Shown: one piece after another, positions 6,564 to 30,426 of the stretch
How the letters are laid out: every line of letters starts with the position of its first letter
Position numbering within the stretch: the first letter of the stretch is position 1
Source of the DNA: Campylobacterales bacterium
GTDB taxonomy: Bacteria > Campylobacterota > Campylobacteria > Campylobacterales > JAADDG01
Direction: 5' to 3'
NCBI GenBank assembly: GCA_027009865.1
Contig: JALVCR010000099.1
Span: 1 to 35,408, forward strand
Length of the DNA: 35,408 bases
Position numbers and translations under genes: made by a program
The notes under the pieces: model-generated
Databases searched by the model: none
What the model was told of the DNA's origin: nothing
What the model saw: the letters and a program-made list of their open reading frames with translations, nothing else

Positions 6564-6619
6564 GAGTTTTCCTTTAGGAAGATTTTCTTCTATTATACAC
6601 AAATATAACATTAACAAGA

Positions 6620-6633
6620 TTGATTAGAATCAA
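6620..6633 (-). promoter_or_regulatory. FNR/CRP-type box TTGATTAGAATCAA upstream of nosB, with TATAAT -10 at 6592-6597
   Basis: Perfect TTGAT-N4-ATCAA palindrome. The -10 hexamer lies about 30 nt downstream on the minus strand, and the ATG lies about 57 nt from the box. Confidence 0.65.
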
Positions 6634-6643
6634 CGATTTATAA

Positions 6644-6689
6644 CCTATATTTATTTATATCATTTAAAAATATTATAAATAAATATAGG
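6644..6689. repeat. Perfect 16-bp inverted repeat CCTATATTTATTTATA / TATAAATAAATATAGG with a 14-nt spacer
   Basis: Read directly from the sequence. It lies between the nosZ terminator and the nosB FNR box. Confidence 0.8.
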
Positions 6690-6702
6690 GATTTATCAAA
6701 TC

Positions 6703-6737
6703 TACAAAAAAGGAGAGGGAGAAATTCCCTCTCTTTT
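6703..6737 (-). terminator. Rho-independent terminator directly after nosZ
   Basis: Minus strand: GAGAGGGA-atttc-TCCCTCTC (6733..6713) followed by CTTTTTTG. It starts 1 nt after the TAA of nosZ. Confidence 0.8.
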
Positions 6738-9347
6738 TTAGAAGAGGTTAGCGTTTTCGTCGATCCATTTTAGATATTCAATAATATCTTTAATCTCTTG
6801 ATCGCTCATATGTTGATTTGGCATTCTGAGATTAAAATAATCAATCATAGATTTTACATATGGATCATCATATTTGCTTGATGGGTTTTTAATAAATTCA
6901 GCAACCCATTTCTCGCCATTTTCATGTCTTTTTAGAACACCGACAAGATCAGGGCCTGAACTTACCTTACCAATAACGTGGCATCCGTTACATCCTCCTT
7001 CTGCAAATGCAGCTTCTCCTCTTTTTGCTGCTTCGCTCATAGGAGTGGCAAGTTTTTTAACCAATAAATCTTTAGCTCTAATACCAACATCAGCTGTTTT
7101 AACCAAATATTGCCATGCTTGATATTGGAAGTTGATAGCTGTCTCTATATCTCCTTTTTTGAGAGCTTCTTCAGCCTTCTTCTCTTCGCCAGCAACTTTG
7201 CTAAATTGATCCATAGCGTCATCTACAAGATTTTTAACTACAGGATATTTCTCGTAGTGATTCTCTTTTAGGAATTTAACAACACTTTGAATAACTTTTT
7301 TAGTGGCTTCATTTAATTTTACAGTTTTGTCATACTCTTTTTGCAACTGCTCTTTGCTCATTTTTTTGAGCTTAATTTTCTTAACAGATTTATATTTCTT
7401 ATTAGGATCTTTAACCATCAAGTATCCCATCATCTCAAGGTGTAATGCAGAACAGAATTCTGTACAATAGTATGGGAAAACACCCTCTCTGTCGGCTTTA
7501 AATGTTACGGCAACTGTTTTACCAGGCTCCAAAGAAGCATGAACATTATACCAGTCAACTGTAAATCCGTGAGTCTCATCTTCCGCTCTTTCTAAGTTGG
7601 TTAGATAGAAAGTTACTATATCTCCTTTGTTTACAGTTACATGTTCAGGGTTAATATGACTTCTAACCAAAGTTCCATAAACATATACATGATTTCCTTT
7701 TCTCTCTATGCGCTCTTGTCCTGCAAGAGTTTTACCTTTATGAGGTTTTCCTGTAAAAGGATTTGTTCCCATTGGATATCTAACTTCAGTATGAAGTTTG
7801 CTTGCTCTAATTGCAACAGCTTGGTGAGGTTCACCGAGAGGAACCGGCATATCATAAAGCAGTTTCATTTTTTTGCCACTTATATCTATAAGCTGATGGT
7901 TTTGCGGATGAAGAGGCCCTATTGGATTAAATCTGTCAATTGCAAGTTTATTTAGAGCTATAATATACTCTCCTTGAGGATCCTCAGTTTTTCCTTCCAT
8001 ACCACAAAGGTGACCAATATTATAGTTTACATTTACTCTATCTTTTACTTCACATGTTAAATAGTTCCATTTTACAACTTGACTGTCAACATATAAAGAA
8101 GTATAAATCTCACCCTCTGTTTTCCATTTAGGTCCAAATTGATTGTGAAGAGGTCCAAGTCCAAGCTCTGCTTGGCAATGCATAGCTTTTTTCATATCTA
8201 TAATAGGAATTCCATATGGATCTTTACCTACAAAGTCCTTATTTTTAACAGCTTCCATAATTTTCTTAAAATCATACACTGTTGCATGAGTATCAAGCTT
8301 TCCGCAAACAACAATATATCTTCCATCAGGACTTACATCTACTCCATGAGGAGATTTTGGTTCAGGAATCAAAAATAAAGCATCATTTTTAACAGCAACT
8401 TCAATTGGAATAACTTTTATACCATTTATAACTTTTACATTTTTTGGATCTTTTGCGAGCTCAGCTAATTTTTTCCAATTATAAACATGCAAGTAGTCTG
8501 TATCATTTCTTGAGCATCCTGCTTCAAATGGAGGAAGTCCTTTTTCAATACCCCCTGTATACATCTCAGAGTTAAAAGAGTTTGTAAATCCCCATCCATA
8601 ACTTAACTCTTTACCTGCATCGCTTAAATCTTGCATATACGGAGGCATCTCAATTACAAAAGATTCCTTTGGAATAATTTTTCCTTTTTCATGATCAAAT
8701 TTCCATACAGTAACTCCACCTCTGTAAACATCAGCATACTCTTCCATTGGATGATAACTTAAATCATAAGGAGCACCATATTGACAGGCTTCAAGAATAT
8801 ATTCGCTATTTGGAGTAAAGAAAGCTCCACCATGATCTGATTTAAAAACAGGATTTACAACAATCTGTTTTGTAACAAAATCTTTTAAATCTATAACAGC
8901 AATTCTCGGATTTGCCTTATCGTTAATTACTAACCATTTTCCATCATATTTTCCATTTGTCTCAGAAATTGCCGGATGGTGAGTATCTCCCCATGTTATA
9001 GGTTTACCAAACCATTTACCTTCAGCCAAAACTTTTTTGGTATCGTCATCATAACCCCAACCTTGCCAAGGCTCAGGAGTAAATACACCGATAAACTTCA
9101 AAATTCTCATAGACGGAACGCCATAAACCATAATCTGACCAGACTGTCCGCCTGAGCTAAAAACTATATATTTATCCCTTCCACCACTTGGAGTATATGT
9201 TTTTGCAGCAGCTAAGATATCATCTTGCGTCAATCCTCTTTCTTTCATAATCTTCTCAAGTTCACTTTGAGCCGTAGCAAAACCTGAAACCATACATACG
9301 GCTGCGGCTACACTGATCAACCTTTTAAAGGTTCTTCCAATCCGCAT
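6738..9347 (-). CDS. nosZ: Nitrous-oxide reductase, clade II with a C-terminal monohaem cytochrome c domain (cNosZ)
   Basis: 869 aa with a Sec-type signal peptide. It has a beta-propeller region, a CuA-like motif (CTEFCSALHLEMMG) and a C-terminal CNGCH haem c domain after a helical linker. Confidence 0.97.
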   Translation of the reverse strand: MRIGRTFKRLISVAAAVCMVSGFATAQSELEKIMKERGLTQDDILAAAKTYTPSGGRDKYIVFSSGGQSGQIMVYGVPSMRILKFIGVFTPEPWQGWGYDDDTKKVLAEGKWFGKPITWGDTHHPAISETNGKYDGKWLVINDKANPRIAVIDLKDFVTKQIVVNPVFKSDHGGAFFTPNSEYILEACQYGAPYDLSYHPMEEYADVYRGGVTVWKFDHEKGKIIPKESFVIEMPPYMQDLSDAGKELSYGWGFTNSFNSEMYTGGIEKGLPPFEAGCSRNDTDYLHVYNWKKLAELAKDPKNVKVINGIKVIPIEVAVKNDALFLIPEPKSPHGVDVSPDGRYIVVCGKLDTHATVYDFKKIMEAVKNKDFVGKDPYGIPIIDMKKAMHCQAELGLGPLHNQFGPKWKTEGEIYTSLYVDSQVVKWNYLTCEVKDRVNVNYNIGHLCGMEGKTEDPQGEYIIALNKLAIDRFNPIGPLHPQNHQLIDISGKKMKLLYDMPVPLGEPHQAVAIRASKLHTEVRYPMGTNPFTGKPHKGKTLAGQERIERKGNHVYVYGTLVRSHINPEHVTVNKGDIVTFYLTNLERAEDETHGFTVDWYNVHASLEPGKTVAVTFKADREGVFPYYCTEFCSALHLEMMGYLMVKDPNKKYKSVKKIKLKKMSKEQLQKEYDKTVKLNEATKKVIQSVVKFLKENHYEKYPVVKNLVDDAMDQFSKVAGEEKKAEEALKKGDIETAINFQYQAWQYLVKTADVGIRAKDLLVKKLATPMSEAAKRGEAAFAEGGCNGCHVIGKVSSGPDLVGVLKRHENGEKWVAEFIKNPSSKYDDPYVKSMIDYFNLRMPNQHMSDQEIKDIIEYLKWIDENANLF

Positions 9348-9461
9348 ATTGTCCTCCTTTCTTTGTTAAATATACGTTAAATAAATTATAATTAAAACTT
9401 GCTTATTTAGAGCTTAATGAATTAAGATTCAGAGGCTTCTATACTTTTTTGAATCTTAAAA

Positions 9462-9475
9462 TTGATTTACATCAA
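9462..9475 (-). promoter_or_regulatory. FNR/CRP-type box TTGATTTACATCAA (nosZ promoter, proximal)
   Basis: Perfect palindrome about 115 nt upstream of the nosZ ATG. A TATAGA -10-like hexamer lies at 9438-9443 (minus). Confidence 0.6.
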
Positions 9476-9500
9476 GAAAAATTTTAAGCTTTAAAAACTC

Positions 9501-9514
9501 TTGACATAAATCAA
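9501..9514 (-). promoter_or_regulatory. FNR/CRP-type box TTGACATAAATCAA (nosZ promoter, distal)
   Basis: Its centre lies 39 bp from the proximal box. The 14-mer is identical to the napA box at 26970-26983. Confidence 0.55.
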
Positions 9515-9611
9515 TTGCTTTCCTTTAAATAGGCTATTTTACGGCTTTTTACAAAGAAAGTAAATATTTTCTTGAGAGATAATTATTAAAGATAAAAATT
9601 AATTTAATAAT

Positions 9612-10346
9612 TTAAGTTTTAAACCACTTAAGGGAATCTCTAAGCTCTACCACTTTACCTACTACAATTAAAGCTGGAGTTTTTAAACCTTTTGCCAAAT
9701 AGGTTATATTTTCTAAAGTTCCAATTATCGTTTTTTGTTCTTTTGAAGTTCCCCTGCTAATAACGGCAACCGGAAAATCTTTGGGTTTTCCTATCTCAAT
9801 AAGTTTTTTAGAGATATTTTCAAGATTATGAAGCCCCATCAAAAACACTATCGTATCATCGGTTTTGAAATTCTCCCACGGAATCTGGCTTGTCTCTTTA
9901 TTTGGCGCCTCATGACCGGTTACAACTCGAAAACTTGCGCTAATCCCTCTATGAGTTACCGGTATTCCAGCATAAGCTGGAACGCTTATAGCTGAAGTAA
10001 TGCCCGGAATTACCTCAAATTCAATTCCCTTTTTCTTTAAATATATTCCCTCTTCTCCGCCTCTTCCGAAAACAAAAGGATCTCCGCCCTTTAGTCTCAC
10101 CACAATATCATACTTTAAAGCGCTTTGATAGATAACTTCATTTATCTTATCTTGCGGCAGGATATGTTTCCCATCCTCTTTTCCCACATATAAAAATTCG
10201 CATCCGTCTTTACACATCTTTAAAATTTCAGGATTTGCTAAACGATCGTAAATTACTACGTCGGCTTTTTTTATCACTTTTGCCGCTTTTAAAGTTAAAA
10301 GCTCAATATCTCCGGGACCTGCTCCCGTTAGATAAACTTTACCCAT
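9612..10346 (-). CDS. cobA: Uroporphyrinogen-III C-methyltransferase (CobA/NirE; first step towards sirohaem and haem d1)
   Basis: Motifs GAGPGDIELLT, LKGGDPFVFGRGGEE and GITS...AGIP, about 244 aa, last gene of the nir biosynthetic block. Confidence 0.9.
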   Translation of the reverse strand: MGKVYLTGAGPGDIELLTLKAAKVIKKADVVIYDRLANPEILKMCKDGCEFLYVGKEDGKHILPQDKINEVIYQSALKYDIVVRLKGGDPFVFGRGGEEGIYLKKKGIEFEVIPGITSAISVPAYAGIPVTHRGISASFRVVTGHEAPNKETSQIPWENFKTDDTIVFLMGLHNLENISKKLIEIGKPKDFPVAVISRGTSKEQKTIIGTLENITYLAKGLKTPALIVVGKVVELRDSLKWFKT

Positions 10347-10358
10347 ACTCTTTTTCCC

Positions 10359-11420
10359 CTATTTTGTATGAAAAATGAAAATACCTGAAGGTTTTGGAAC
10401 ATTTATACTAAAATCTTCCTTCCAAGTTTTGGTATTTACGCCTATAACTTTGCTTTTTCCATTATTTGAAACATATAACAAAGGCTCTTCCTTGCTCCAT
10501 CTAACATGCAAAACCATACCTTTAAAATCGAATCTTTTTACAATTTTTAAAGATTTTGTATCTATAATTTCAACTATTGGGAATTTTTTACCGCTAAAAG
10601 TAACTGCTAAGTAATCTCTTTTAGGACTTAAAGATGTAAAAACAGGATTTCCTTCCACTTCTATATATTTTATAAAATTAAAATCTTTGTCAAATACAAA
10701 AACTTTATTATCCCCAACTGCCGGAATAAAAAATTTATCTTTCATAATAGACCAAAAACCAAAATGGGGAACTTTCAAAACTATATTTTTATGCTCAAGT
10801 TTTAACGGCGCTTTTTTATACTCAAATGTATCAAGATTTAAAACTCCCACAAAAGGAGAGTTAAAAAAACCGCAGACATAGATATTCTTATTTATCATAG
10901 CATCAAACGGAACCTCTCCGGCATTTTCTATAACTTTAAATTTTTTAAATTTTTTGCCTTCTCTTTTCATAACCCATATCTCATCTTTATCCATAGCGGC
11001 AAAAATCAAATAATCTTTATAAGTTTTTATACCGACATTTCTTGAAGAGGTATCTATAGTTTGCAAAAGATTTAAATCTCTATCAAATATCTCTACCGTT
11101 TTATTGGAATAGTTGGCTACTGCTACAAAATCTTTAGCCAAAGTAAAACCTATCGCGCTTTTGCTTGCTTTAACCTCTTTGATTTTCTTCTCTTTTATAG
11201 GATCGAATTTAATTAAATATCCGTCTCTTGTAATAACATATCCGTCGTTATCTATAAATTTAACCACTGCGTGATTAAAATTATGCATATTTTTGATTTC
11301 ATTTTTCAGTTTATGATTCTCTATCACAGCAAGAGCGCTATTTTCCCTCTCCACCACAAAAACTTTCTCATGTGCAAAAACAAAAATCGCTCCTATTAAC
11401 AAAAGAAAAATTTTTTTCAT
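10359..11420 (-). CDS. nirF: NirF-like haem d1 biosynthesis protein (cd1-type beta-propeller without a haem c domain)
   Basis: Signal peptide and a propeller-like sequence paralogous to the d1 domains of NirS and NirN in this window. No CxxCH motif. Confidence 0.8.
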   Translation of the reverse strand: MKKIFLLLIGAIFVFAHEKVFVVERENSALAVIENHKLKNEIKNMHNFNHAVVKFIDNDGYVITRDGYLIKFDPIKEKKIKEVKASKSAIGFTLAKDFVAVANYSNKTVEIFDRDLNLLQTIDTSSRNVGIKTYKDYLIFAAMDKDEIWVMKREGKKFKKFKVIENAGEVPFDAMINKNIYVCGFFNSPFVGVLNLDTFEYKKAPLKLEHKNIVLKVPHFGFWSIMKDKFFIPAVGDNKVFVFDKDFNFIKYIEVEGNPVFTSLSPKRDYLAVTFSGKKFPIVEIIDTKSLKIVKRFDFKGMVLHVRWSKEEPLLYVSNNGKSKVIGVNTKTWKEDFSINVPKPSGIFIFHTK

Positions 11421-12538
11421 ACTCCATCCTTATTCAAATTTATATAACAGCTTGGATCTTCTTGCCAAAGATCTCCGCTTATAGCCCAAGCTCTGGGTCT
11501 ACTTCCGCCGTTACAGATTTCCAAGAAGGGACAATTCTCACACTTTCCCTTTAAATCTCTTGGAAATTTTCTAAGTTTTCTTAAAAGCTCATTATTTTCA
11601 TCCTGCCAAATCTTATCAAAATCTCTCTCAAAAATATTCCCCACCTTTACAGGAAAAAAGGGATCTGGTTTAACGTCTCCTTCGCTATTTATATTGACAA
11701 GATTCCTCCCTGCGCTGTTTCCTCCCCACTTTTTAAGTTTATCTAAAAGAGCCTCTTTTTTATCTGGATACTCTTTTGAAAATCTCTCTAAAAACAAAAT
11801 TGCATCCATCTCCATATTGCCGGTAACTATATCAATATCTACGCCTTCTTTGTAGTATTTAAAAGCCTTATCTATAATAAACTCTACGCTCTTTCTCCTC
11901 TCCTCTTTATCTATATCCATTTTCAAATTATCAAGCCCTCTTCCAGAATATACAAGATGAGAGATATAAATCTTATCTATCCCCTTCTCTTCGGCCAAAG
12001 AGAAGATATGAGAAAGAGAGTCTTTAGTCTCTTTTGTTATTGTAAATCTAATCCCAACTCTGCCCTCATTTTCATGAATTAAATCTATAGCTTTTAAACT
12101 CATATCATAGCTTCCGGCAAGCCCTCTAAATCTGTCATGTATCTCTCTTTCTCCATCTATGCTGATTCCTATATATCCAAAAGTATCTATAATCTTCTTT
12201 ACATTGCTTTTATGAATATATAAACCGTTTGTAGATAGATAAGTAGAAATTCCCTCATCCCTAAAAGCTTTTGCTATATCAAAAATATCTCTTCTTGTTA
12301 AAGGCTCTCCGCCGGAGAATATGACAAATTTAATTCCTGCTTTTTTTAATTTTGGAATAGTTTCAAAAATTTTTTTAGTTGTTAAAGTGTCATTTGATTC
12401 CAAAGAGGCTTTGGAATAGCAGTGAAGACATGAAAGATTGCAGCGATTTGTAAAATTCCAAATCAAAATAGAGCCATTTAAAGTTCTTGACTTTTTGCCC
12501 TCAACTGTGCTTTTTAATAAATTGGATAATCTAAACAC
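11417..12538 (-). CDS. nirJ: NirJ, radical-SAM haem d1 biosynthesis enzyme
   Basis: Radical-SAM motif CNLSCLHCY and a C-terminal auxiliary Cys cluster (CENCPFLEICNGG). It lies between nirN and nirF. Confidence 0.85.
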   Translation of the reverse strand: MFRLSNLLKSTVEGKKSRTLNGSILIWNFTNRCNLSCLHCYSKASLESNDTLTTKKIFETIPKLKKAGIKFVIFSGGEPLTRRDIFDIAKAFRDEGISTYLSTNGLYIHKSNVKKIIDTFGYIGISIDGEREIHDRFRGLAGSYDMSLKAIDLIHENEGRVGIRFTITKETKDSLSHIFSLAEEKGIDKIYISHLVYSGRGLDNLKMDIDKEERRKSVEFIIDKAFKYYKEGVDIDIVTGNMEMDAILFLERFSKEYPDKKEALLDKLKKWGGNSAGRNLVNINSEGDVKPDPFFPVKVGNIFERDFDKIWQDENNELLRKLRKFPRDLKGKCENCPFLEICNGGSRPRAWAISGDLWQEDPSCYINLNKDGV

Positions 12539-14226
12539 TATTTGCCTTTAAAACTTTCTATATAATCAACAATGGATTTTAGCTCTTTTTCATTTAAATT
12601 AAAAGAGGGCATTGAATTTCTTTTATATCCAAGCTGTTTATATGTATGTTTTGGATCTTCTATCTGGCTTATTATCTCCCCTCTGTCTCTTTTTGAGGCT
12701 ATTTCGCTAAAAGGAGGGCCAAAAGCCATAGCGGTTTGATGATGACAGCCCCAGCATTTTTCTTTAAATATGCTCATTCCAAAAAGTCTTGGATAAAAAA
12801 CTCTGTTTTTGTTTATAAAGTTATATTTTCCGACTGGAACATTTGCTTTGTAATCTTTTATCTCTTTGAAAGTATCCGTCTGCCAAACAAGCAAATCCCC
12901 ATCTTTTTCATAGATACTAAGATAAGTATATTTGCCGTCTCCGCTAAATTCGGCATGAATATATCTTTTTCCTTTTCTTGGAGTTAAATTTTTTATCTTG
13001 AAATCTTCTTTATCTACTAAAACAAGTTTATCATCTCCCCTATCAACCCATAAATAATTTGAAGCCGGATGAGTCTTGACAAAAAAACCGTCTCCCCCGA
13101 CATCTATCTTCTTTATAAGCTTCCAATCATACATCTGCCAAACAGTAATAAAAGAGCTTCTTAGATGCGGAGTAGCAAAATAAAATTTTCCGTCTCTATA
13201 CCAATATGTAGCGCTAAATAGATGAGGCATTCCAGAAATTTCAGCTTTGAAAACCTCTTTTAGAGAGTTTATATCATAAACATTTAAACTTTTTCCTCTT
13301 CTTGTAGTTCCAATAATATACTCTTCAAAAGGATCTATAAAAAAATCTTCTATCGGCTCTTTTAAATCATAGCTTTTAAACTTAAGAGTTTTAGTATCAA
13401 CTTTTACCAATTTCGGTTTATCCCTAAAAGTAAATATCGCTTCATCCCTGCTATAAAGCTCATATAAAGCGCTAATTTTGCCATTGACTTTGACAACTTT
13501 AATAGGATTAAATTTTTCTCTATCAAAAATTACAACCGATTGAGGCAAAAGACAGGTAGCAAAGATATATTTCCCATCTCTGCTTAAACTTATATTCCTT
13601 AAATTAACGCAAGCTCTAATTTTCTCTTTTAGCCTTCCCTCTTTCAAAGAGTAATGCCCTATCCATCCGTCTCTTGTAGGAACATAAAAATTTTTTCCAT
13701 CAAGCGTATATTTTAATCCTCCGTGAACATTTTTAAAAGAAAATTTATCCAAAATTTTCTCATCTTCCATAATCCAAACTTTATTAGCTCCTCTCTCAAC
13801 AACCAAAGTTACGTTATCTATATTTTTAATATGTAAATTTTTCTTGGGACTATTGAAAATTTTCTTGGATTTTTTTATATTTTCTATATTCCACTCTATA
13901 TTTTTGGCCGGAGTTTTTAAATACTTAACAATATAATAAATCTCCTCTTCTTTCAAAAAATCAAATTTTGGCATAAGAGTCTGAGGAAGAGAATTTTTTA
14001 TAATGGAAGAGATTCTTTTGTTAGAGAGTTTTTTAATAAATTGAGGTAAAAGCGGAGGAGCGCTTATTCCTTCCCTTTGCATTCCATGACAAGAAGCGCA
14101 ATATTTATCATATAAAACTTTTCCTTGATTACTTTTAGCTTCAAGCTGATGAATATAAAAACTATCAAATTCAGATGAAAAAGAAAAAGAGAAAACAAAA
14201 ATAGATAAAAGAAGTTTTTTAAACAT
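12538..14226 (-). CDS. nirN: NirN-like cytochrome c / d1-propeller protein carrying an extra C-terminal cytochrome c domain
   Basis: N-terminal CASCH, a central cd1-like propeller and a second haem motif CWGCH about 70 aa from the C-terminus. I placed the start at ATG 14224-14226 (MFKKLL, SD GGAGGGG). The track's TTG at 14241 lies inside that SD. Confidence 0.75.
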   Translation of the reverse strand: MFKKLLLSIFVFSFSFSSEFDSFYIHQLEAKSNQGKVLYDKYCASCHGMQREGISAPPLLPQFIKKLSNKRISSIIKNSLPQTLMPKFDFLKEEEIYYIVKYLKTPAKNIEWNIENIKKSKKIFNSPKKNLHIKNIDNVTLVVERGANKVWIMEDEKILDKFSFKNVHGGLKYTLDGKNFYVPTRDGWIGHYSLKEGRLKEKIRACVNLRNISLSRDGKYIFATCLLPQSVVIFDREKFNPIKVVKVNGKISALYELYSRDEAIFTFRDKPKLVKVDTKTLKFKSYDLKEPIEDFFIDPFEEYIIGTTRRGKSLNVYDINSLKEVFKAEISGMPHLFSATYWYRDGKFYFATPHLRSSFITVWQMYDWKLIKKIDVGGDGFFVKTHPASNYLWVDRGDDKLVLVDKEDFKIKNLTPRKGKRYIHAEFSGDGKYTYLSIYEKDGDLLVWQTDTFKEIKDYKANVPVGKYNFINKNRVFYPRLFGMSIFKEKCWGCHHQTAMAFGPPFSEIASKRDRGEIISQIEDPKHTYKQLGYKRNSMPSFNLNEKELKSIVDYIESFKGK

Positions 14227-14249
14227 TTTACACCCCTCCAAAAATAATT

Positions 14250-14321
14250 AAAGCTGTTTGGAGAACCAAAAATTTTGGCTTTCCAAACAGCTTTTAGTAA
14301 ATATCGGGCAAAAGCCCGATA
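14250..14321 (-). terminator. Tandem hairpins downstream of nirS (terminator/attenuator)
   Basis: The first is TATCGGGC-tttt-GCCCGATA (14321..14302). The second is a 13-bp stem AAAGCTGTTTGGA/TCCAAACAGCTTT (14250-14262/14282-14294) with an inner CCAAAA/TTTTGG stem, followed on the minus strand by AATTATTTTT. Confidence 0.7.
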
Positions 14322-14324
14322 CTA

Positions 14325-15995: not shown

Positions 15996-16020
15996 AAATC
16001 CTCCTTTACTTATTGATTCT

Positions 16021-16054
16021 ATGAAAAAGGATATCCCTATTCGTTAGGGATATC
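16021..16054 (-). terminator. Hairpin GATATCCCTA-acgaa-TAGGGATATC plus CTTTTTC between the nor genes and nirS (attenuator or mRNA-processing signal)
   Basis: 10-bp perfect stem (16030-16039/16045-16054) overlapping the stop codon of the 54-aa ORF. A U-run follows on the minus strand. Only about 25 nt remain before the nirS SD. Confidence 0.55.
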
Positions 16055-16201
16055 ACCTCTCTCCATCTTCTTTTTCTCATCAAAATATATCCATACCATC
16101 GGCAAAACAATTAACGTGTGTAGAATTATGGTAAGAGTCATTGGCCCCTCATTTAATAAGGACCAAAAACTACACACAACATCATGACATGGCTCTATCA
16201 T
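16037..16201 (-). CDS. Unannotated 54-aa single-TM protein between norB and nirS
   Basis: Below the track's size cut-off. SD AAGGAG lies 5 nt upstream of ATG (16199-16201). Translation: MIEPCHDVVCSFWSLLNEGPMTLTIILHTLIVLPMVWIYFDEKKKMERGDIPNE. It has an N-terminal CxxxxC, one hydrophobic helix and a charged tail. Confidence 0.55.
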   Translation of the reverse strand: MIEPCHDVVCSFWSLLNEGPMTLTIILHTLIVLPMVWIYFDEKKKMERGDIPNE

Positions 16202-16255
16202 AACAACTCCTTTATATTATTTCTATTAATTATTAAATTAATAATGTTTATTAAT

Positions 16256-18344: not shown

Positions 18345-18356
18345 TGTACCTCCTTT

Positions 18357-18689: not shown

Positions 18690-18745
18690 ATTCCCTCCTT
18701 TTATTTGATTTGATTATATTTTATATATATTTTTCCAAAAAAGCT

Positions 18746-18759
18746 TTGACGTCGGTCAA
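18746..18759. promoter_or_regulatory. FNR/CRP-type box TTGACGTCGGTCAA in the divergent nor / regulator intergenic region
   Basis: Palindromic half-sites TTGAC/GTCAA. A TATAAT lies at 18713-18718 (minus) upstream of the 110-aa ORF. The regulator gene starts 92 nt away on the + strand. Confidence 0.6.
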
Positions 18760-18850
18760 AAAGAAAAAAGAGAGAAAAGATTAATAGAGACTTAATAGCT
18801 TTTTAATTATAATTTTTATTAAACATAAAATTAAAAATAAAGAAAAGATA

Positions 18851-19489
18851 ATGGAAAATATAAGAAATTTTTATCTGTTTAAAAATCTAAAAGAGAATCA
18901 GCTTCAAGAATTAAAAAATATTTCTATTATAAAAGAATACAAAAAAGGAAGTATCCTTTTTTATGAAGGAGATAAGGCTAAATCTTTAATTTTGCTAATA
19001 GCTGGGATATTACAAATTTATAAAACCGATCATAGGGGAAATAAGATAGTTTTGCATACATTTTATCCCCAAGAGTTGATAGCCGAAATAGCAAATTTCG
19101 AAAATATGCCATATCCCGCAACTGCAGAATTTATGACAAGCGGAAAAGTGGTGCATATAGATTATAAAAAATTTGAAGAAAAATTTTTAAAGAATCCTGA
19201 GATATCTTTTACTATAATTAAATCTTTAAGCAATAAAATCAAATACCTTGAAAATGTAATAACAAACGATATAGTCTTAAGCTCAACGGCAAGAGTAGCT
19301 AAATTTATCTATAAACATGAAGAAGAGTTTTTAAAGCTCAAAAAAAATGAGATAGCAACTATCATGAATATTACACCAGAAACTTTATCTCGTATAATAG
19401 GAAAACTAAAAAAATTGAAAATTTTAGAAAAAGAGAGAAATAATTATAAAATTATAAATAGAGAGGGATTAAAATCCCTCTTTGAGTAA
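18851..19489 (+). CDS. Crp/Fnr-family transcriptional regulator, cysteine-free (NssR/Dnr/NnrR-like class)
   Basis: N-terminal cNMP-binding-like beta-roll (GSILFYEGD). The C-terminal HTH (EIATIMNITPETLSRIIGKLKK) carries the FNR-type E--SR recognition motif. No Cys anywhere in the 212 aa. Confidence 0.9.
   Translation: MENIRNFYLFKNLKENQLQELKNISIIKEYKKGSILFYEGDKAKSLILLIAGILQIYKTDHRGNKIVLHTFYPQELIAEIANFENMPYPATAEFMTSGKVVHIDYKKFEEKFLKNPEISFTIIKSLSNKIKYLENVITNDIVLSSTARVAKFIYKHEEEFLKLKKNEIATIMNITPETLSRIIGKLKKLKILEKERNNYKIINREGLKSLFE
19462..19481. terminator. Hairpin AGAGGGATT-aa-AATCCCTCT embedded in the last codons of the regulator gene
   Basis: 9-bp inverted repeat. It lies 3' of the PAS gene stop on the minus strand, followed there by a T-rich run, and at the 3' end of the + strand gene. 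It may act as a bidirectional terminator. Confidence 0.4.
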
Positions 19490-19491
19490 AC

Positions 19492-20010
19492 TCAAATTGA
19501 TTCTAAAAGCTTTTCAACCGAAATATTTTTCTCTTTTGCTTTTTTAACTAAATTATCATATAAAGAAGCCTTAATATAAGAGACGCATCTTACATTCTCC
19601 CCTGCTTCTTTTCTCATTTTATCATAAAGATTTTGCATCTCTATTCTCTTCTCTTTTGGAACAAAACTTCTCATAGATTTATACTCTACAAGCTCTCCAT
19701 CTTTATAAACTCCGCTTATCTCAGCATATACCCAATAAAAACCTCTATCTTTTCTAAGATTCTTAACATATCCGCTCCAGCTTTTACCCGTTTTTATAGT
19801 ATCCCAAAGATCTTTAAAAACCGATTTTGGCATATCAGGATGTCTTAAAATATTGTGGGGCTTTCCTATAAGCTCATCTACTTCATAACCGCTTATTTTT
19901 GCAAATGTCTCATTTGCATAAGTAATTATTCCTTTTAGATCTGTCCTTGAAATAATTAACTCATCTTTGGGAATTTCCGTTTCAATGAACATATCGTAAC
20001 TGATATCCAT
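19492..20010 (-). CDS. Stand-alone PAS-domain sensor protein, CetB/Aer-type
   Basis: Motif run TDLKGIITYANETFAKISGYEVDELIGKPHNILRHPDMPKSVFKDLWDTIKTGKSWSGYVKNLRKDRGFYWV is typical of Aer/CetB PAS domains. The gene starts 8 nt after the napD stop, with an AAGGA SD. Confidence 0.85.
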   Translation of the reverse strand: MDISYDMFIETEIPKDELIISRTDLKGIITYANETFAKISGYEVDELIGKPHNILRHPDMPKSVFKDLWDTIKTGKSWSGYVKNLRKDRGFYWVYAEISGVYKDGELVEYKSMRSFVPKEKRIEMQNLYDKMRKEAGENVRCVSYIKASLYDNLVKKAKEKNISVEKLLESI

Positions 20011-20018
20011 TTGAATCC

Positions 20019-24060: not shown

Positions 24061-24074
24061 AACAATTCCTTCCT

Positions 24075-26885
24075 TTATGCTTTATAAATTTTAACCGCAC
24101 ATTTTTTGTAATCGGTTTGTTTAGAAATAGGACAAGTTGCATCCAATGTAACTTTATTTATAAAAACCCTCTCGTCAAACCAAGGAACAAACACCAATCC
24201 TTTAGGAGGTCTGTTTCTTCCTCTTGTCTCAACTCTTGCTTTGATTTTTCCTCTTCTGCTCTCTACCCAAACCAAATCTCCTCTTTTTACGCCTCTTTTC
24301 TTGGCATCTTCAGGATGCATATAGCAAAGAGCTTCAGGAACCGCGCGATATAGTTCTGGAACTCTCATAGTCATTGTTCCACTGTGCCAATGCTCCAAAA
24401 CCCTTCCTGTGCATAGCCAAGTATCATACTCTTTATCCGGAGTCTCAGGCGGCTCCATATAAGGTCTCATAAATATTTTGGCTTTATTTGGCAAATGAAC
24501 TTTAGGCTTGGATTTATCAGGACCCCTTAGAGTTCCTTGAGGAATAGTTTTTAGAGCATGCCCATAGAATGCAAACTCTCCTTTAACTCTTCCTTTCTCT
24601 TTCTCTCTTTTTGCATAAGGATCGTAGTTTACGTTAAATCTCCAAGGAGTATCTTTACCGTTAACTACAGGCCATCTTAAGCCTCTTACTTTATGATAAA
24701 CATCAAACGGAGCATAATCGTGTCCACGTCCCGCACCAAATTGTCTATACTCTTCCCAGAGAGCTTTTTGAATAAAGAATCCATATCCTTTAAAAGGCTT
24801 TCCGTCAGTTCCTATTACGTTTCTCTTATCTCCCTCAGCTTCCGTATTTCCAAAACCTTCGCCTATTGGGTCAGGCCATTTGAAAGATTTGTAATATTTA
24901 TTGGCAAATAGAACATCAAACAAATTATCCTCAGGGCTATAACCCATTTTTTTAGCTTCTTCTAAAACATTTGGCAATACTGTGCCGTCAGGAAGTTTCC
25001 ACTCTTTCCATACCTCTTTTAGTTTAAATCTTTTTGCAAACTCAGTATATTGCCAAACATCAGGCATAGCATTTCCGACAGGAGTTACTTGCTGTCTCCA
25101 GTGTTGAGTTCTTCTCTCAGCATTTCCGTAAGCTCCCCATTTTTCGTAAATCATAGCACTTGGTAAAATAAGATCCGCTACTTTGGCGCTGATTCCAGGA
25201 TATCCGTCGCTTACTACAATAAAGTTATCCATAGTTCTTGCGGCTTTTATCCAGTGATTGGCATTTGCAGTATCTTGCCAAGGATTACATACTTGAACCC
25301 AAGCAAATTTTATTTTTCCATCTTCCAAATCTCTCATTATTTTAACGATATGGCTTCCAACTTTAGGATTAATGGTTCCTTTTGGTAATCTCCAAATTTT
25401 CTCTGCAATCTCTCTGTGTTTTGGATTAAATACTACCATATCTGCCGGAAGTCTGTGAGCAAATGTTCCAACCTCTCTTGCAGTTCCGCAAGCGCTTGGC
25501 TGTCCAGTTAAACTAAAAGCTCCGCTTCCTGGAAGAGATTGTTTTCCTACTAAGAAATGAACAACATAGCTTAACTCGTTATCCCATGTTCCTCTGGTAT
25601 GCTGATTCATACCCATCGTCCAGAAGGATACTACTTTTCTGCCCTTCTCAACATAGTAATCTTTAAGTCTTTTTAGTTTTGCTTTAAAGCTCTCCAAACT
25701 CTCATCTGGATCTCCCTTTGCCACTTTTGCCACATAATCAAGAGTATAAGGTTCAAGTCCTTTTTTAAATTCTTCAAAACTGATAGCCCAATGCTTTCCG
25801 GCAGCTTTTGCATGTTTCATTTGCATAACTTTAGTATCGCCATAGCCAAAAGGTTTAAGAGCCACTCTCTCTGCATCGCTTAAAGGTTTTGCAGCTTGAT
25901 GGGATACAGTCTCCATCTCTTTTTTGCTGTATCCAAGCTTTGCAGCATGTTTTGGATTTCTCATACCGTAACCGATATCAGGAAATCCTGTGGCAAATAC
26001 GGTATAGTCTTTAACAAAATTCCAATCTATGGCATCTGGGTGATCATAAACTATGCTTCTTGCAATATAGTTCCAAATTGCCAAATCTGTATTTGGTTTG
26101 AAAATAATAACATCATCTGCCAAATCACAAGTTCTGTGAACATATGTAGATAAAACTACAACTTTCACTTTTTTAGGATTAGAAAGTTTTCTATCGGTAC
26201 ATCTTGCCCACAAAATCGGATGCATCTCCGCCATATTGGAGCCCCATACCGCAATCGTATCGGTAAGCTCTATATCGTCATAACAACCTGCCGGTTCATC
26301 TATTCCGAAAGTTTGAATAAATCCTGCAACCGCACTTGCCATACAGTGTCTTGCATTCGGATCTATATTGTTGCTTCTAAATCCCGCTTTCATCAATTTA
26401 GCGGCGGCATAACCCTCTTGAACCGTATATTGTCCCGAACCAAAAAAGGCCACGCCTGTAGGTCCAAGCTCGTTATAGGCTCTTTTAAACTGTTTTTCCA
26501 TCTCATCGTAAGCTCTTTTCCAGCTTACTGGCTTAAATTTACCCTTTTTATCAAACTCACCTTTTTCATTAACTCTTAAAAGAGGAGTTGTAAGTCTATC
26601 AGCACCATACATGATTTTGGCAGTAAAATAACCTTTAATACAGTTTAGACCTCTGTTTACCGGAGCCAAAGGATCACCTTTTACAGCAACAATTCTATCA
26701 TTTTTAGTAGCAATCATAATACCGCAACCGGTTCCGCAGAAACGGCAGACCGCTTTATCCCATCTCCATCCCTTTTCAGCTTCCTTGCTCGCAGCTTCCA
26801 CATCTTTTGGGATTGAAAGACCAACGGCACTTGCAGCTGCAGCAGCCGCACTGCTTTTTAAAAAATCTCTACGACTAAGTGACAT
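24075..26885 (-). CDS. napA: Periplasmic nitrate reductase catalytic subunit NapA (Mo-bisMGD, 4Fe-4S)
   Basis: Tat signal [21 protein letters not shown] and an N-terminal FeS motif CRFCGTGCG. It is a large molybdopterin oxidoreductase. I set the start at ATG 26883-26885 (SD AAGGAGG); the 19-aa track extension lacks an SD. Confidence 0.97.
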
Positions 26886-26969
26886 ATAAGCCTCCTTCTT
26901 AATTTTACCCTGTAACAGGCAATAGTAGACTAACAATAGCAATTCTATATTTTTTATAAAAATAGTGCA

Positions 26970-26983
26970 TTGACATAAATCAA
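26970..26983. promoter_or_regulatory. FNR/CRP-type box TTGACATAAATCAA in the divergent napA / FmdE-like intergenic region
   Basis: Lies 85 nt upstream of the napA ATG. A TATAGAAT -10-like sequence follows on the minus strand about 30 nt downstream. Confidence 0.6.
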
Positions 26984-27087
26984 TATCGTAAATTTGCGAT
27001 ATCTCCTAAATCTGTTTAAGCCTATATTGCTATTAAATTTGGGATATGTTACCATTTATCCTTCATTAAAAATAAAGGGGAGAGAGA

Positions 27088-27690
27088 ATGAATTATCCTG
27101 CATTTTTCGATAAAGTAGAAAAGATAAAACTATATGATCCTTTAGCGGATTTCTTAGGAGCGATAGAAAACGGCGAGATGCAAATAGAGTATATTGACGC
27201 GGTTAAATTTGCAGGCCACTCCTGCCCTACGGTAGCGGGAGCATATTTGATGACTCTTTTGGGATTAAGAGAGCTTTTTGCTAACTCTTTACCAATTAGA
27301 GGAGAGATAGAGGTTTTTATAAAAGGAGAGAAAAAAGAGGGGGTAAACGGCGTGATAGGAAATACGATAGCTTTTATCTGCGGAGTCAGCGATGAGGCGG
27401 GTTTTAAGGGAATAGGCGGAAATTTCAACAGGTCAAATAAGCTCTTTTTTAATTCTCAAATTCCAAAAGATGTAAGATTAAAAAGAGCAGATACAAAAGA
27501 TTATGTCGATATCTCTTATGATAGTTCTATAATTCCCCCAAATCCTAAAATGAAAGAACTAATGCAGCTTATAATGATGAAAAGAGCGGATGAAAATATA
27601 AAAAAAGAGTTTCAAAAATTGTGGCAAGAGAGAGTTAAGAAGATACTGCTTTCAAAAGAGCTTTGGCCAAAAATGATACTAATCTCTTAA
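27088..27690 (+). CDS. FmdE/FwdE-domain-like protein (putative)
   Basis: Motifs GHSCPTVAGAY and ...ICGVSDEAGFKGIGGNF... resemble the FmdE family signature (GHxCPG..G, C..D..q..tG). SD GGGGAGAG. Transcribed divergently from napA. Confidence 0.5.
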   Translation: MNYPAFFDKVEKIKLYDPLADFLGAIENGEMQIEYIDAVKFAGHSCPTVAGAYLMTLLGLRELFANSLPIRGEIEVFIKGEKKEGVNGVIGNTIAFICGVSDEAGFKGIGGNFNRSNKLFFNSQIPKDVRLKRADTKDYVDISYDSSIIPPNPKMKELMQLIMMKRADENIKKEFQKLWQERVKKILLSKELWPKMILIS

Positions 27691-27692
27691 AA

Positions 27693-27716
27693 AGTCCCTT
27701 TTAGGGACTATTTTTT
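27693..27716. terminator. Bidirectional terminator between convergent genes
   Basis: AGTCCCT-ttt-AGGGACT flanked by an A-run (27689-27692) and a T-run (27711-27716). It overlaps the TAG of the minus-strand gene. Confidence 0.7.
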
Positions 27717-28214
27717 GATATATGTCAAAAATTTATCTTCACTCTCTTTGGCGCTAAATACTTCATAACCTCTCTTTAAAAACTCATCAATTAAAGGAGC
27801 CGGCTTAAAATCGGTCTCTAACAGCAAAACATCCCCTTTTTCAAAATCTTTTAAAATTTTATTGATATAGGAGAGAGGATTTTCTCCTTCATCTAAAAGC
27901 TTGTTTCCATTAACTATTGCTTTTGGCTCTTTTGTAGCCCATATAGGAAAACTTTTTTCCTCTTTTTGCTCATTATCTTCAATATTTTCAATCTCTTCTT
28001 TTCCAACAAGCCTTCTTATTTTATTTAATAAATCCAAAGGCTCCATTCCCCCTACGATAGCCGCTTGTTTGATACCGGCTACCCTTGCTATTGTTCTTCT
28101 TAAAACGGGGTTTTTTAGCTTTTTAAATTTGGGATTTATTTTAATAAGCTCATCTTCTAAGAAAGGATACTCCTTTAAAAGATCGTAAATCTTGGTATTT
28201 AAATCTATCTCCAT
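27708..28214 (-). CDS. Two-domain protein: DUF1858-like N-terminus plus DUF2249-like C-terminus
   Basis: The N-terminus (IYDLLKEYPFLEDELIKINPKFKKLKNPVLRRTIARVAGIKQAA) matches my recollection of DUF1858. The C-terminus (GENPLSYINKILKDFEKGDVLLLETDFKPAPLIDEFLKRGYEV) is DUF2249/TusA-fold-like. Last gene of the operon. Confidence 0.55.
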   Translation of the reverse strand: MEIDLNTKIYDLLKEYPFLEDELIKINPKFKKLKNPVLRRTIARVAGIKQAAIVGGMEPLDLLNKIRRLVGKEEIENIEDNEQKEEKSFPIWATKEPKAIVNGNKLLDEGENPLSYINKILKDFEKGDVLLLETDFKPAPLIDEFLKRGYEVFSAKESEDKFLTYIKK

Positions 28215-28432
28215 ATCTTCTCGCCCCTTTTATATCGCCTATACATTATATAGAAATCTTTAAAAATCAAAATAAGAGAATATATCCATAAAATATCCAA
28301 AACTATATTTCTATCATATCCTAAATAAAAATATAAAACGGGAAGGCCTATAACAATAGGCCATTTCATATAATAAAAAAATAAAATTCCAACCCCGTAT
28401 AGATGGCGAAGCTCCCTTTTTAAATCTCTCAT
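28205..28432 (-). CDS. Small (75 aa) two-TM membrane protein
   Basis: Two hydrophobic helices with basic flanks. It overlaps both neighbours (4 and 10 nt), which suggests translational coupling. Confidence 0.5.
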   Translation of the reverse strand: MRDLKRELRHLYGVGILFFYYMKWPIVIGLPVLYFYLGYDRNIVLDILWIYSLILIFKDFYIMYRRYKRGEKIWR

Positions 28433-28746
28433 TTAAACAGATTTGCCCCCAAAGCCTTCTTAACCTCTTCGCTTGCCATAGTGATATTCCAAGGCGGATC
28501 CCAAACTATCTCAACCGTAACTTCTCCAACCCCCGGAAGCTTCTCTACAGCCTCTTTAACCCACTGCTGCATCATCTGATGCAAAGGGCATCCTCTCGTA
28601 GATAGAGTCATTTTTACATGGACATTATTTTCATCGTCAATCTCCACATCGTAAATAAGCCCCATATCTACAACATTAAATCCAACTTCTGGATCTATTA
28701 CCGTCTTTATCGCATCATAAACTTGCTCTTTTGTAAGTTTACTCAT
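28429..28746 (-). CDS. DUF59 / SufT-like FeS-assembly family protein
   Basis: VIDPEVGFNVVDMGLIY...VKMTLSTRGCPL... is the typical DUF59 (MIP18/SufT) signature. I placed the start at ATG 28744-28746 (SD AGGAG), 2 nt after the upstream stop. Confidence 0.7.
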   Translation of the reverse strand: MSKLTKEQVYDAIKTVIDPEVGFNVVDMGLIYDVEIDDENNVHVKMTLSTRGCPLHQMMQQWVKEAVEKLPGVGEVTVEIVWDPPWNITMASEEVKKALGANLFK

Positions 28747-29989
28747 TTTCACTCCTAAATTCAAGCATCCATTTTAAAGAAAATCCTAAAAATAAAGCTC
28801 CCATAAAAAGCAGATAAACTCCTCCCCTAAAAAGCTCGTCATTGCTTACCAAAAGCCCCAAAGTAGATAAAACTGCTCCAGCAAAACTAAACCAAAACTC
28901 AAATTCCGCCATCTTTTTTGGATACATCTCGTTTAACATCGGAACTTTTCTTTTTCCAACAAGAGGAGAGAATCTATGAAACCATACCAAAAAAGGAACT
29001 ATTTTATAAAGATGGCCGTTTATTAAAAAAGCAAAAAATCCCACAAACAAAAGCCACATTGAGGAATATAAAAAATTATTTGCTCCTCCTCCGCTTAGAA
29101 TATACAAAAATCCAAGCAAAAGCGAAACAAATAAAGATATATAACCAAAAATCATAGATTTATACCAGATATCCATCTCTCTTCTGACTCTTTTTTGATA
29201 AATTAAAAATATCTGATATAAGTAAAAAACTATTGAAACAAAAGAGAGAAAATAGCCGACTAATTTAATAATATCAGCCTTTAAAAAAACTCCTGCAAAA
29301 ACCAAAGCAACCGAATAGATCATAAACTTAAAAGCAAGATTTATAGCTCTCTCATTAAAGCCGTGGGCAAGGCCGAACATTGGAAGCAAAATCAAAGATA
29401 TTCCCATAATTGTAATTAATACATATCCTCCCACAACCGCAAAAACATGAGCTTTTAAAATCTCCTCTATATCAACCCCCATAAATCCAGAAAGCGTCAA
29501 AGCCATCAGAAACCCGCTTAAAATTCCAATCAAAAGAAAAATATTTGAAACTTTGACAGCTTTTACAGTTAATGAATTTAATGAGGTTTTCTTTATCGTC
29601 AAAAACACATCAACCGCAAAAATAATCATTGAGCTTAAAACAAGTATCCCCCCGAAACTTAAAAGTATCGGATTAAGCCAAAAACCGGCTACCAGCAAAA
29701 CAGTTCCTATCAAAAGAAGAGGGAAAATTAGATAATACCAGTCTATGCTAAAATGGCCGGTTTCTAAAACAACCGGGACAAGCTGAGCCATCGCTCCAAA
29801 AATTATCATCATAACATAGCCGATTAAAAAAAGATGAACCCATCCAGCTACGCTAAGCTCTCTAAAATCAAATCCGGCAGAATAAAAAAGAGCCGAAAGC
29901 ATCGACAAAATATAAAAAACAACACCGCTTATAAAAAACGGCGTAATTAATTTAAAAGGCGGCGCAAAATCTTTAGATACGTTAAACAC
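28739..29989 (-). CDS. 416-aa, ~12-TM membrane protein with six conserved-looking His (possible haem/Cu-binding, distant NnrS-like?)
   Basis: By eye there are 12 hydrophobic segments. His residues lie in or next to helices: WVHLF, GHFSIDW, KAHVFAV, LAHGFNE, INGHLYK, WFHRFSP. I recognised no confident family motif. Confidence 0.5.
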   Translation of the reverse strand: MFNVSKDFAPPFKLITPFFISGVVFYILSMLSALFYSAGFDFRELSVAGWVHLFLIGYVMMIIFGAMAQLVPVVLETGHFSIDWYYLIFPLLLIGTVLLVAGFWLNPILLSFGGILVLSSMIIFAVDVFLTIKKTSLNSLTVKAVKVSNIFLLIGILSGFLMALTLSGFMGVDIEEILKAHVFAVVGGYVLITIMGISLILLPMFGLAHGFNERAINLAFKFMIYSVALVFAGVFLKADIIKLVGYFLSFVSIVFYLYQIFLIYQKRVRREMDIWYKSMIFGYISLFVSLLLGFLYILSGGGANNFLYSSMWLLFVGFFAFLINGHLYKIVPFLVWFHRFSPLVGKRKVPMLNEMYPKKMAEFEFWFSFAGAVLSTLGLLVSNDELFRGGVYLLFMGALFLGFSLKWMLEFRSENE

Positions 29990-30005
29990 CTTCTAACTCT
30001 CCTTT

Positions 30006-30350
30006 CTAACCCTCACAGTGAGAATCGTTTAAATTAGCTTTTTCGCTCTCTCCCTCTTTATAGCTAAAAACCAATCTCACATTTCCGTCTGGAAGTTCCT
30101 CTTTTTCAATATTATAGTTTTGCTCAATCTTATTTAAAAGTCCCATTGGCATTTTATGATTTATCATAACAAGCTTGATATTTGGAGAATTTACAAGCTT
30201 CAAACCGGCCATCGCATTTACCATAGGCTCGGGAGGACCGCATCTGCTTGTATCAAATTGATAATAAGTAACTCCGTCTTTTTCATATTTAAAAAAATCA
30301 ACGCTTGCTCCGGGAACCTCCACTTTTTGAGCATTGTCTGGCAAATACAT
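30006..30350 (-). CDS. DUF2249 / TusA-fold-like small protein
   Basis: FDTSRCGPPEPMVNAMAGL...LVMINHKMPMGLLNKIEQ matches the DUF2249 pattern (PPEP...P..L). Strong SD AAGGAGG. First gene after the FNR box. Confidence 0.55.
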   Translation of the reverse strand: MYLPDNAQKVEVPGASVDFFKYEKDGVTYYQFDTSRCGPPEPMVNAMAGLKLVNSPNIKLVMINHKMPMGLLNKIEQNYNIEKEELPDGNVRLVFSYKEGESEKANLNDSHCEG

Positions 30351-30412
30351 AAAAAACCTCCTTATTTAAGATAAAAATTGTCTTATTTTATCACTTCAAA
30401 GCTTTATTGTCA

Positions 30413-30426
30413 TTGATTCATATCAA
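30413..30426 (-). promoter_or_regulatory. FNR/CRP-type box TTGATTCATATCAA upstream of the DUF operon
   Basis: Perfect palindrome 63 nt upstream of ATG 30350. A GATAAAAT -10-like element lies about 30 nt downstream on the minus strand. Confidence 0.6.

Follow-up and report, generated by a model that had tools for sequence, protein, structure and literature searches.

Vent Campylobacterota that carry a clade II nitrous oxide (N2O) reductase, NosZ, are strong N2O sinks, and the stretch of DNA analyzed here raises the question of how the denitrification genes of such organisms are wired. The stretch (35,408 nucleotides (nt), contig JALVCR010000099.1 of a Campylobacterales bacterium; hereafter the window) derives from hydrothermal-vent metagenomes, has a guanine-plus-cytosine (GC) content of about 34% and holds a compact denitrification island on the minus strand. 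Among cultured organisms, the Nitrosophilus/Nitratiruptor group is closest to it, and it represents an uncultured relative bearing the Crp/Fnr-box architecture proposed for Nitrosophilus labii. An earlier note on this sequence had proposed that six TTGAT-N4-ATCAA boxes define a single regulon, comprising the nos, nor/nir and nap genes and an operon of DUF2249-type genes, under a locally encoded Crp/Fnr protein. Our analysis indicates, with a probability of about 80%, that boxes of the form TTGAY-N4-RTCAA (Y, pyrimidine; R, purine) are functional Crp/Fnr operators, serving as class II activator sites at the nosB, nor-nir, nap and DUF2249-operon promoters.

Occurrence, spacing and conservation of the boxes

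The strict box occurs seven times in the window against 0.19 expected (100 dinucleotide shuffles, with a maximum of two copies and none at seven), and 16 copies versus 6.4 expected are seen when one mismatch is allowed. A pattern search recovered the six 14-mers reported previously, with the same coordinates and sequences; all are exact, intergenic inverted repeats, those at 9501 and 26970 are identical, and the distances of 57-154 nt to minus-strand starts are correct given the nosB ATG at 6563 and the napA ATG at 26885. Together they occupy the five intergenic regions of more than 100 nt between positions 725 and 31726 (911 nt summed), each of which holds at least one box, and for which a first-order Markov simulation of those regions predicts 0.005 boxes. 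As had also been noted, the core box is in none of the short gaps inside operons. The looser core TTGA-N6-TCAA has 11 exact copies in the window, five of which (8781, 19482, 23617, 27715 and 34402) lie in or at coding sequence, so that the Y and R positions beside the core separate promoter sites from background.

Overlooked in the earlier list was the seventh strict match, which falls in coding sequence (Table 1) and adjoins a bidirectional terminator hairpin at the convergent junction of the DUF1858 and FmdE-like genes. It probably arose by chance: three relatives (L009-L011) do not share it, and neither side offers a -10 element at 22 nt. At 19482-19495, TTGAGTAAACTCAA forms a perfect TTGAG/CTCAA inverted repeat across the convergent stop codons of the regulator and PAS genes; it fits the loose core and fails the strict form.

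At four promoters, those of nosB, the norE-like/nor-nir genes, napA and the DUF2249 operon, the box is followed in the direction of the gene by exactly 22 nt and then by TAnAAT, the distance from the box center to the first -10 base being 29.5 nt. With the -10 hexamer at -12 to -7, the box center therefore falls at -41.5, the class II position. The transcription start sites (TSSs) behind this numbering were inferred from the -10 hexamers and from published N. labii values. The class II geometry claimed previously for the boxes, judged by the -10 hexamer as a proxy for a site near -41.5, is thus seen at these four promoters and fails at both boxes before nosZ. The nor box lies in the divergent region common to the nor promoter and the regulator gene. 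The proposal that the napA box also serves the divergent FmdE-like gene found no support, as no -10 element stands at the fixed spacing on the FmdE-like side in the window.

The same grammar was followed through a comparison set of the window and 13 related loci (252,839 nt, or 253 kilobases (kb)), comprising metagenome-assembled genomes (MAGs; L001, L002, L006 and L015-L018), Nitrosophilus kaiyonis (L009), N. labii (L010, L012), Nitratiruptor SB155-2 (L011), N. alvini (L013) and Hydrogenimonas urashimensis (L014). Genome and metagenome scans based on the regulator gave 3-4 useful loci each, and context was drawn from homologues of the DUF2249 and NosB proteins. The set holds 34 strict boxes, of which 33 are intergenic (two of these overlap only the stop codon of the upstream gene), the exception being the seventh box of the window. 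TAnnnT stands exactly 22 nt after the box in 29 of the 34, on at least one side, the gene side. Counted over all 68 box orientations it is found at this offset in 31, against a background of 5.8% per offset (binomial P = 1.2e-20), a value that overstates independence because orthologous promoters are related by descent.

Between orthologous promoters the spacer sequences have diverged and the spacer length is constant. The seven other nos loci (L012-L018) all retain the nosB box at an unchanged 22-nt distance; the nor box is kept in three of three nor loci (L001, L002, L006), the napA box in four of four nap loci (L001, L009, L010, L011), and the box of the DUF2249 operon, at identical spacing, in all three cultured genomes compared (N. 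kaiyonis, N. labii, Nitratiruptor SB155-2). The FmdE-like gene has a second box of its own in the relatives, which the window lacks. Such constancy makes the combination of box, 22 nt and TAnAAT usable in genome scans for regulon members.

The relatives also show the grammar before a porin-like outer-membrane gene, a nirD/L-like heme d1 gene and a PAS gene, and a cytochrome c peroxidase gene is preceded by a box with a 21-nt spacer; the regulon therefore seems to reach beyond the genes of the window. In H. urashimensis, a homologue of the window's PAS gene is divergent from nosZ, and the box common to both (L014 7096-7109) is flanked at exactly 22 nt by one -10-like hexamer on the nosZ side (TATTAT) and another on the PAS side (TATAAA), which suggests that one dimer could serve two divergent class II promoters.

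Table 1. Positions of boxes, promoter elements and genes discussed in the text; positions refer to the window unless a related locus is named (aa, amino acids).
Feature	Position	Strand	Remarks
nosB(-DGC1C2HF..L) promoter box	6620..6633	-	TTGATTCTAATCAA, 22 nt, TATAAT; predicted TSS 6585
nosB -10 TATAAT	6592..6597	-	inferred TSS ~6585; box center -41.5
Intrinsic terminator after nosZ	6713..6733	-	8-bp stem, 5 GC pairs, then T run
nosZ core -10 TATAAT	9385..9390	-	from alignment of nosZ upstream regions; predicted TSS ~9378
Second palindrome CTTAA-N4-TTAAG	9413..9426	-	CTTAATTCATTAAG; exactly 22 nt upstream of nosZ core -10
Proximal TTGAY box, nosZ	9462..9475	-	TTGATGTAAATCAA; center ~-90.5 from conserved core promoter
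Distal TTGAY box, nosZ	9501..9514	-	center ~-129.5; 39 bp center-to-center from proximal box
norE-like-norCB-nirS..cobA promoter box	18746..18759	-	TTGACCGACGTCAA, 22 nt, TAAAAT 18723-18718; predicted TSS 18711
Crp/Fnr-family regulator	18851..19489	+	212 aa, cNMP_binding + HTH_Crp_2, helix PETLSRI, Nss/Dnr-like
napAGHBFLD-PAS promoter box	26970..26983	-	TTGATTTATGTCAA, 22 nt, TAGAAT 26947-26942; predicted TSS 26935
Seventh strict box	27715..27728	.	TTGATATATGTCAA; last six codons of DUF1858 gene
DUF2249 operon	27708..30350	-	five genes
DrpB-like DUF1858(+DUF2249) protein	27708-28214	-	last gene
75-aa membrane protein	28205-28432	-
DUF59 protein	28429-28764	-
Heme-copper-oxidase-subunit-I-like membrane protein	28739-29989	-	416 aa, 12 helices
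DrpA-like DUF2249 protein	30006-30350	-	first gene
DUF2249 / heme-copper-oxidase-like / DUF59 / 75-aa / DUF1858 operon box	30413..30426	-	TTGATATGAATCAA, 22 nt, TAAAAT 30390-30385; predicted TSS 30378
Extra boxes before porin-like, cytochrome c peroxidase and nirD/L-like genes	L001 3720, L006 8350, L013 17201 and 19357, L017 11336		related loci

The nosZ promoter

An intrinsic terminator follows nosZ, and nosB with the genes downstream of it therefore forms a separate, box-driven unit. Alignment of nosZ upstream regions reveals a conserved core TATAAT about 40 nt before the ATG, a core promoter that fits the TSS determined by RNA sequencing (RNA-seq) in N. labii, 15 nt upstream of the ribosome-binding site (PMC11539149). 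The class II position relative to this core is taken by the second palindrome, CTTAA-N4-TTAAG, which recurs at the same spacing as exact copies in two MAGs (L002, L016), while the N. labii copy has one mismatch and that of N. alvini is an N5 variant; in H. urashimensis a strict TTGAC box stands there in its place. Exact TTGAY boxes were not found upstream of nosZ in N. labii, N. alvini or the MAGs L017 and L018. We also considered CTTAA-N4-TTAAG as a widespread motif and rejected this, as the window holds one exact copy and its one-mismatch copies number 5 versus 6 expected.

The palindrome may be bound by another dimeric regulator, which nosZ probably integrates with TTGAY boxes acting from a distance. 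Its presence suggests that membership in the regulon of the other genes does not by itself account for nosZ, and argues against a single simple regulon. A fuller scheme can be put forward tentatively at best: nosZ would be under two dimeric regulators, a CTTAA-N4-TTAAG-binding factor at the conserved core promoter and a TTGAY-binding Crp/Fnr protein at two lineage-specific upstream sites, and the conserved box before the DUF2249 operon would mark these DrpA/DrpB and truncated-oxidase genes as a core component of campylobacterial denitrification. If nosZ did answer to two regulators, N2O reduction would be uncoupled from the nap/nor/nir/nosB regulon, and the promoter would offer a cis-regulatory handle on how clade II N2O reducers sense N2O and time its consumption.

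The regulator and competing explanations

The protein encoded divergently from the nor promoter belongs to the Crp/Fnr superfamily (PF00027, E = 1.4e-18; PF13545, E = 3.4e-12), and the Pseudomonas DNR structure 3dkw is among its best matches in the PDB (E = 3.5e-13). It reaches 47 bits with the NCBIfam Fnr model, whose cut-off is 228, and is also far below the cut-off of the CRP model. The four cysteines that hold the O2-sensing [4Fe-4S] cluster of Escherichia coli FNR have no counterpart in the window protein, which is free of cysteine and is therefore not an iron-sulfur (Fe-S) FNR. The E-x-x-S-R helix described previously is present as PETLSR, within a P-E-T-x-S-R-I motif (P176, E177, T178, S180, R181, I182) that is invariant, like His69 and His156, in 11 orthologues from Nitratiruptor, Nitrosophilus and Hydrogenimonas. 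A correlation between Pro/Glu at CRP positions 180/181 and TTGAy half-site motifs has been described (PMC1274295), and a TTGAy half-site is predicted for the PETLSR helix; this helix and the FNR-type boxes at the nor-nir and nos promoters are among the features of DNR-type regulators.

Identity is 71% to Nitratiruptor spp. proteins and 63% to the nor-linked protein of N. labii (P0278), which its authors report to be 50% identical to Wolinella NssB (PMC11539149); a tie of the window protein to the Nss family would run through P0278. A 42%-identical, hcp-linked relative (L007) has an AVTFSR helix and no strict boxes in 20 kb. A consistent autoregulatory geometry was sought for the regulator gene and not found: its TATAAT is 48 nt from the box in the window, but in L001 and L006, where the box shared with nor stands at 1605 and 6282, respectively, the distance is 33 nt. 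In L002, a second strict box (9968-9981) ends 20 nt before the regulator ATG and may serve autorepression.

We propose that the boxes are operators for a dimeric Nss/Dnr-type Crp/Fnr activator. At the four promoters with the fixed spacing, the 14-bp palindrome would take the place of the -35 element, and a dimer centered at -41.5 would contact RNA polymerase directly; we infer from this placement that the effect is activation, not repression, of the nitrate, nitrite/nitric oxide (NO) and N2O-reductase accessory genes together with the DrpA/DrpB-plus-oxidase-like operon. The likeliest binder is the cysteine-free regulator, and that it is the binder, or one of the binders, we hold to be probable, if less so than the operator function of the boxes themselves. 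Its effector would probably be NO or another N-oxide or redox signal and not an O2-labile Fe-S cluster. The nosZ gene would be wired apart, with CTTAA-N4-TTAAG at the class II position and the two TTGAY boxes modulating from afar.

An origin of the boxes as chance AT-rich palindromes or parts of terminators, with no regulatory role, would draw on the low GC content, the strict box in coding DNA beside a terminator and the five loose-core matches in coding DNA. The enrichment in the window, the minute expectation for the intergenic DNA that holds six boxes and the fixed 22-nt spacing to the -10 element nevertheless rule it out for these six, which are also conserved in orthologous promoters with diverged flanks, and we consider it negligible. 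Far less easily dismissed, though still doubtful in our view, is the reading that the boxes are real and are bound by another paralogue outside the window, or are shared by several, so that no one-regulator regulon exists. N. labii and N. kaiyonis do carry a second Crp/Fnr paralogue beside nap with the same PETLSRILKKL helix, and where two such proteins exist the boxes are therefore not assignable to one of them. It is, moreover, the messenger RNA (mRNA) of the nap-linked paralogue, not of the nor-linked one, that is correlated with nap, nor and nir in N. labii (PMC11539149), and Wolinella succinogenes employs three Nss proteins according to the papers that cite the original work. Conversely, neither the window nor Nitratiruptor SB155-2 has a second paralogue at the nap position, and the nor-linked regulator is a syntenic constant in all close relatives (see also PMC7476070). 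Further points weigh against a class II regulon run by this one regulator. The window represents 35 kb of a genome, and the box distribution and paralogue count given here are those of this stretch; a search for RNA runs that contain the window sequence found none; and TAnnnT is missing 22 nt from either nosZ box. Under anoxia, N. labii expresses its denitrification genes constitutively, and in it the mRNA of the nor-linked regulator is uncorrelated with nap, nor and nir and negatively correlated with nosZ (PMC11539149). Given the second PETLSR paralogue of the relatives and the 35 kb covered, the single regulon of the earlier note cannot be shown.

At nosZ, one further alternative has to be weighed, in which the TTGAY boxes act negatively, by repression or anti-activation, or as no more than distal modulators and transcription is driven through the binder of CTTAA-N4-TTAAG. 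The missing -10 at fixed spacing and the conserved core promoter with its own palindrome at the class II position are in its favor, as is the negative correlation of nosZ mRNA with both Crp/Fnr mRNAs in N. labii (PMC11539149). The center of the proximal box, on the other hand, is near the classical class I activating position, H. urashimensis has its strict TTGAC box at the class II position, and the one-mismatch form of the palindrome is not enriched in the window, so that we regard this alternative as possible but rather unlikely. The operator function of the boxes at the other four promoters remains our preferred reading.

Gene layout, the DUF2249 operon and known systems

The gene order begins with nosL-F-H-C2-C1-G-D-B and nosZ (cytochrome-c type, 869 aa), and continues with cobA/nirE-nirF-nirJ-nirN-nirS, a 54-aa open reading frame (ORF), norB-norC and a norE-like gene. 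The divergent Crp/Fnr gene is followed by the PAS gene and napD-L-F-B-H-G-A, then by a divergent FmdE-like gene and the operon of DUF2249, 416-aa membrane protein, DUF59, 75-aa ORF and DUF1858, and finally by the cluster mnmE, jag, yidC and yidD, past which a tRNA-Gly(GCC) gene (35283-35357, plus strand) lies at the far window end. NosB is 87% identical to that of N. labii, and the DUF2249 protein 84% identical to that of N. kaiyonis. Two small conserved membrane ORFs, the 75-aa one and the 54-aa one (16037-16201, minus strand), occupy apparent gaps; homologous genes of 76 and 50 aa are called at the matching positions in N. labii, N. kaiyonis, N. alvini and SB155-2. A stand-alone PAS protein of 172 aa, encoded by the final nap-operon gene (19492-20010, minus strand), has its best match in the flavin adenine dinucleotide-binding PAS domain of NifL (E = 1.4e-18). 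It bears a motif, GKPHNILRHPDMP, which we take to be Aer-like, and may feed a redox or O2 signal into taxis or into the cysteine-free regulator.

The DUF2249 operon is conserved beside nap in N. kaiyonis, N. labii and SB155-2. The proteins encoded at its two ends resemble Thermus DrpA (DUF2249; first gene) and DrpB (DUF1858+DUF2249; last gene). DUF1858 is recognized clearly (E = 2.5e-16) and DUF2249 with scores that do not reach the cut-off (E = 3e-4 and 0.064), although some homologues carry the name DUF2249 domain-containing protein in their source records. The 416-aa protein belongs to a family of more than 1,600 representatives, this member being without Pfam or NCBIfam assignment. A single-sequence AlphaFold model was too poor (predicted local distance difference test score 54), and the protein was placed by comparing a family profile with PDB sequences: this profile, built from 52 homologues, matches residues 306-412 of the cbb3 oxidase subunit CcoN (E = 2e-11). 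Of the 52, 31 match Pfam COX1, and H52 and H181 do not vary within the family. By these profile matches it is a divergent protein of the heme-copper-oxidase subunit-I-like kind.

In Thermus, drpAB encode accessory or regulatory denitrification proteins proposed to sense nitrate, and their promoter depends on the Crp-family protein DnrT (PMC6282519); in haloarchaea, DUF2249 genes are co-induced with denitrification and linked to heme-copper oxidases (PMC11218638). Co-regulation of the operon with denitrification therefore has precedent, and it has not previously been noted for this clade in the literature reviewed. As in Thermus thermophilus, where a DUF2249 and a DUF1858+DUF2249 protein are encoded under a promoter dependent on a Crp-family master regulator (PMC6282519), the DrpA-like and DrpB-like proteins are encoded beside respiratory N-oxide genes. 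Unlike the Thermus genes, the window operon adds the heme-copper-oxidase-like membrane protein, the DUF59 protein and the 75-aa membrane protein, and its DrpB-like protein has one weak DUF2249 repeat where Thermus DrpB has two.

The nearest known system is that of N. labii, for which Tsuchiya et al. (2024; PMC11539149) found exact TTGA-N6-TCAA sites that begin 49 nt (napA), 48 nt (norE) and 48 nt (nosB) before the TSSs determined by RNA-seq. These distances put the box center at -41.5 or -42.5, in agreement with the -41.5 inferred for the window. The transcription units of N. labii are four, namely nap, nor with nir, nosZ, and the accessory nos genes (PMC11539149), and the window resembles it in the clustering of nap, nor-nir, nosZ and nosB..L, the Nss-type regulator divergent from nor and the TTGA-N6-TCAA boxes; Mino et al. 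(2020) likewise described Nitratiruptor species with clustered denitrification genes and an Nss-type regulator divergent upstream of nor (PMC7476070). Unlike N. labii, the window has no nap-linked second regulator and has two perfect boxes before nosZ, where N. labii has none that is exact. The box of the DUF2249 operon, the fixed 22-nt spacing to the -10 element and the CTTAA palindrome do not appear in the N. labii paper (PMC11539149).

Among better-known regulators, Wolinella succinogenes NssA, NssB and NssC (Kern and Simon, 2016), as summarized in PMC8139620 and PMC11539149, have no Fe-S cluster, share the consensus TTGA-N6-TCAA and up-regulate nap and cNos on nitrate, NO or N2O. Like them, the window protein is a Campylobacterota Crp/Fnr protein with no cysteine for such a cluster, and its putative boxes fit that consensus; Wolinella differs in being an ammonifier (nrf, no nirS or cNor) with three paralogues, the window carrying denitrifier genes. 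Pseudomonas DNR has the TTGAT-N4-ATCAA box, the E-x-x-S-R logic and the nir/nor/nos targets in common with the window (PMC1274295). It is a distant relation from another phylum. Class II promoters of E. coli FNR have the box centered at -41.5, replacing the -35 element, an arrangement predicted also for the four window boxes, whose likely binder is cysteine-free. C. jejuni NssR, the namesake of the Nss family, is like the window protein an epsilonproteobacterial Crp/Fnr protein, in its case a nitrosative-stress activator; it has Ala/Gln at the specificity positions and the site TTAAC-N4-GTTAA (PMC1274295), unlike the window protein with Pro/Glu and TTGAY-N4-RTCAA boxes, which lacks the NssR type of specificity. 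In this respect the window regulator is like the Nss proteins that bind TTGA-N6-TCAA and unlike C. jejuni NssR itself. For N. labii, the box with its placement and target operons is already published (2024), as are Nss regulators for Wolinella (2016); to these the window and its relatives make the modest additions of a promoter grammar fixed across the clade, of the DrpA/DrpB-oxidase-like operon as a further target and of a second palindrome in front of nosZ.

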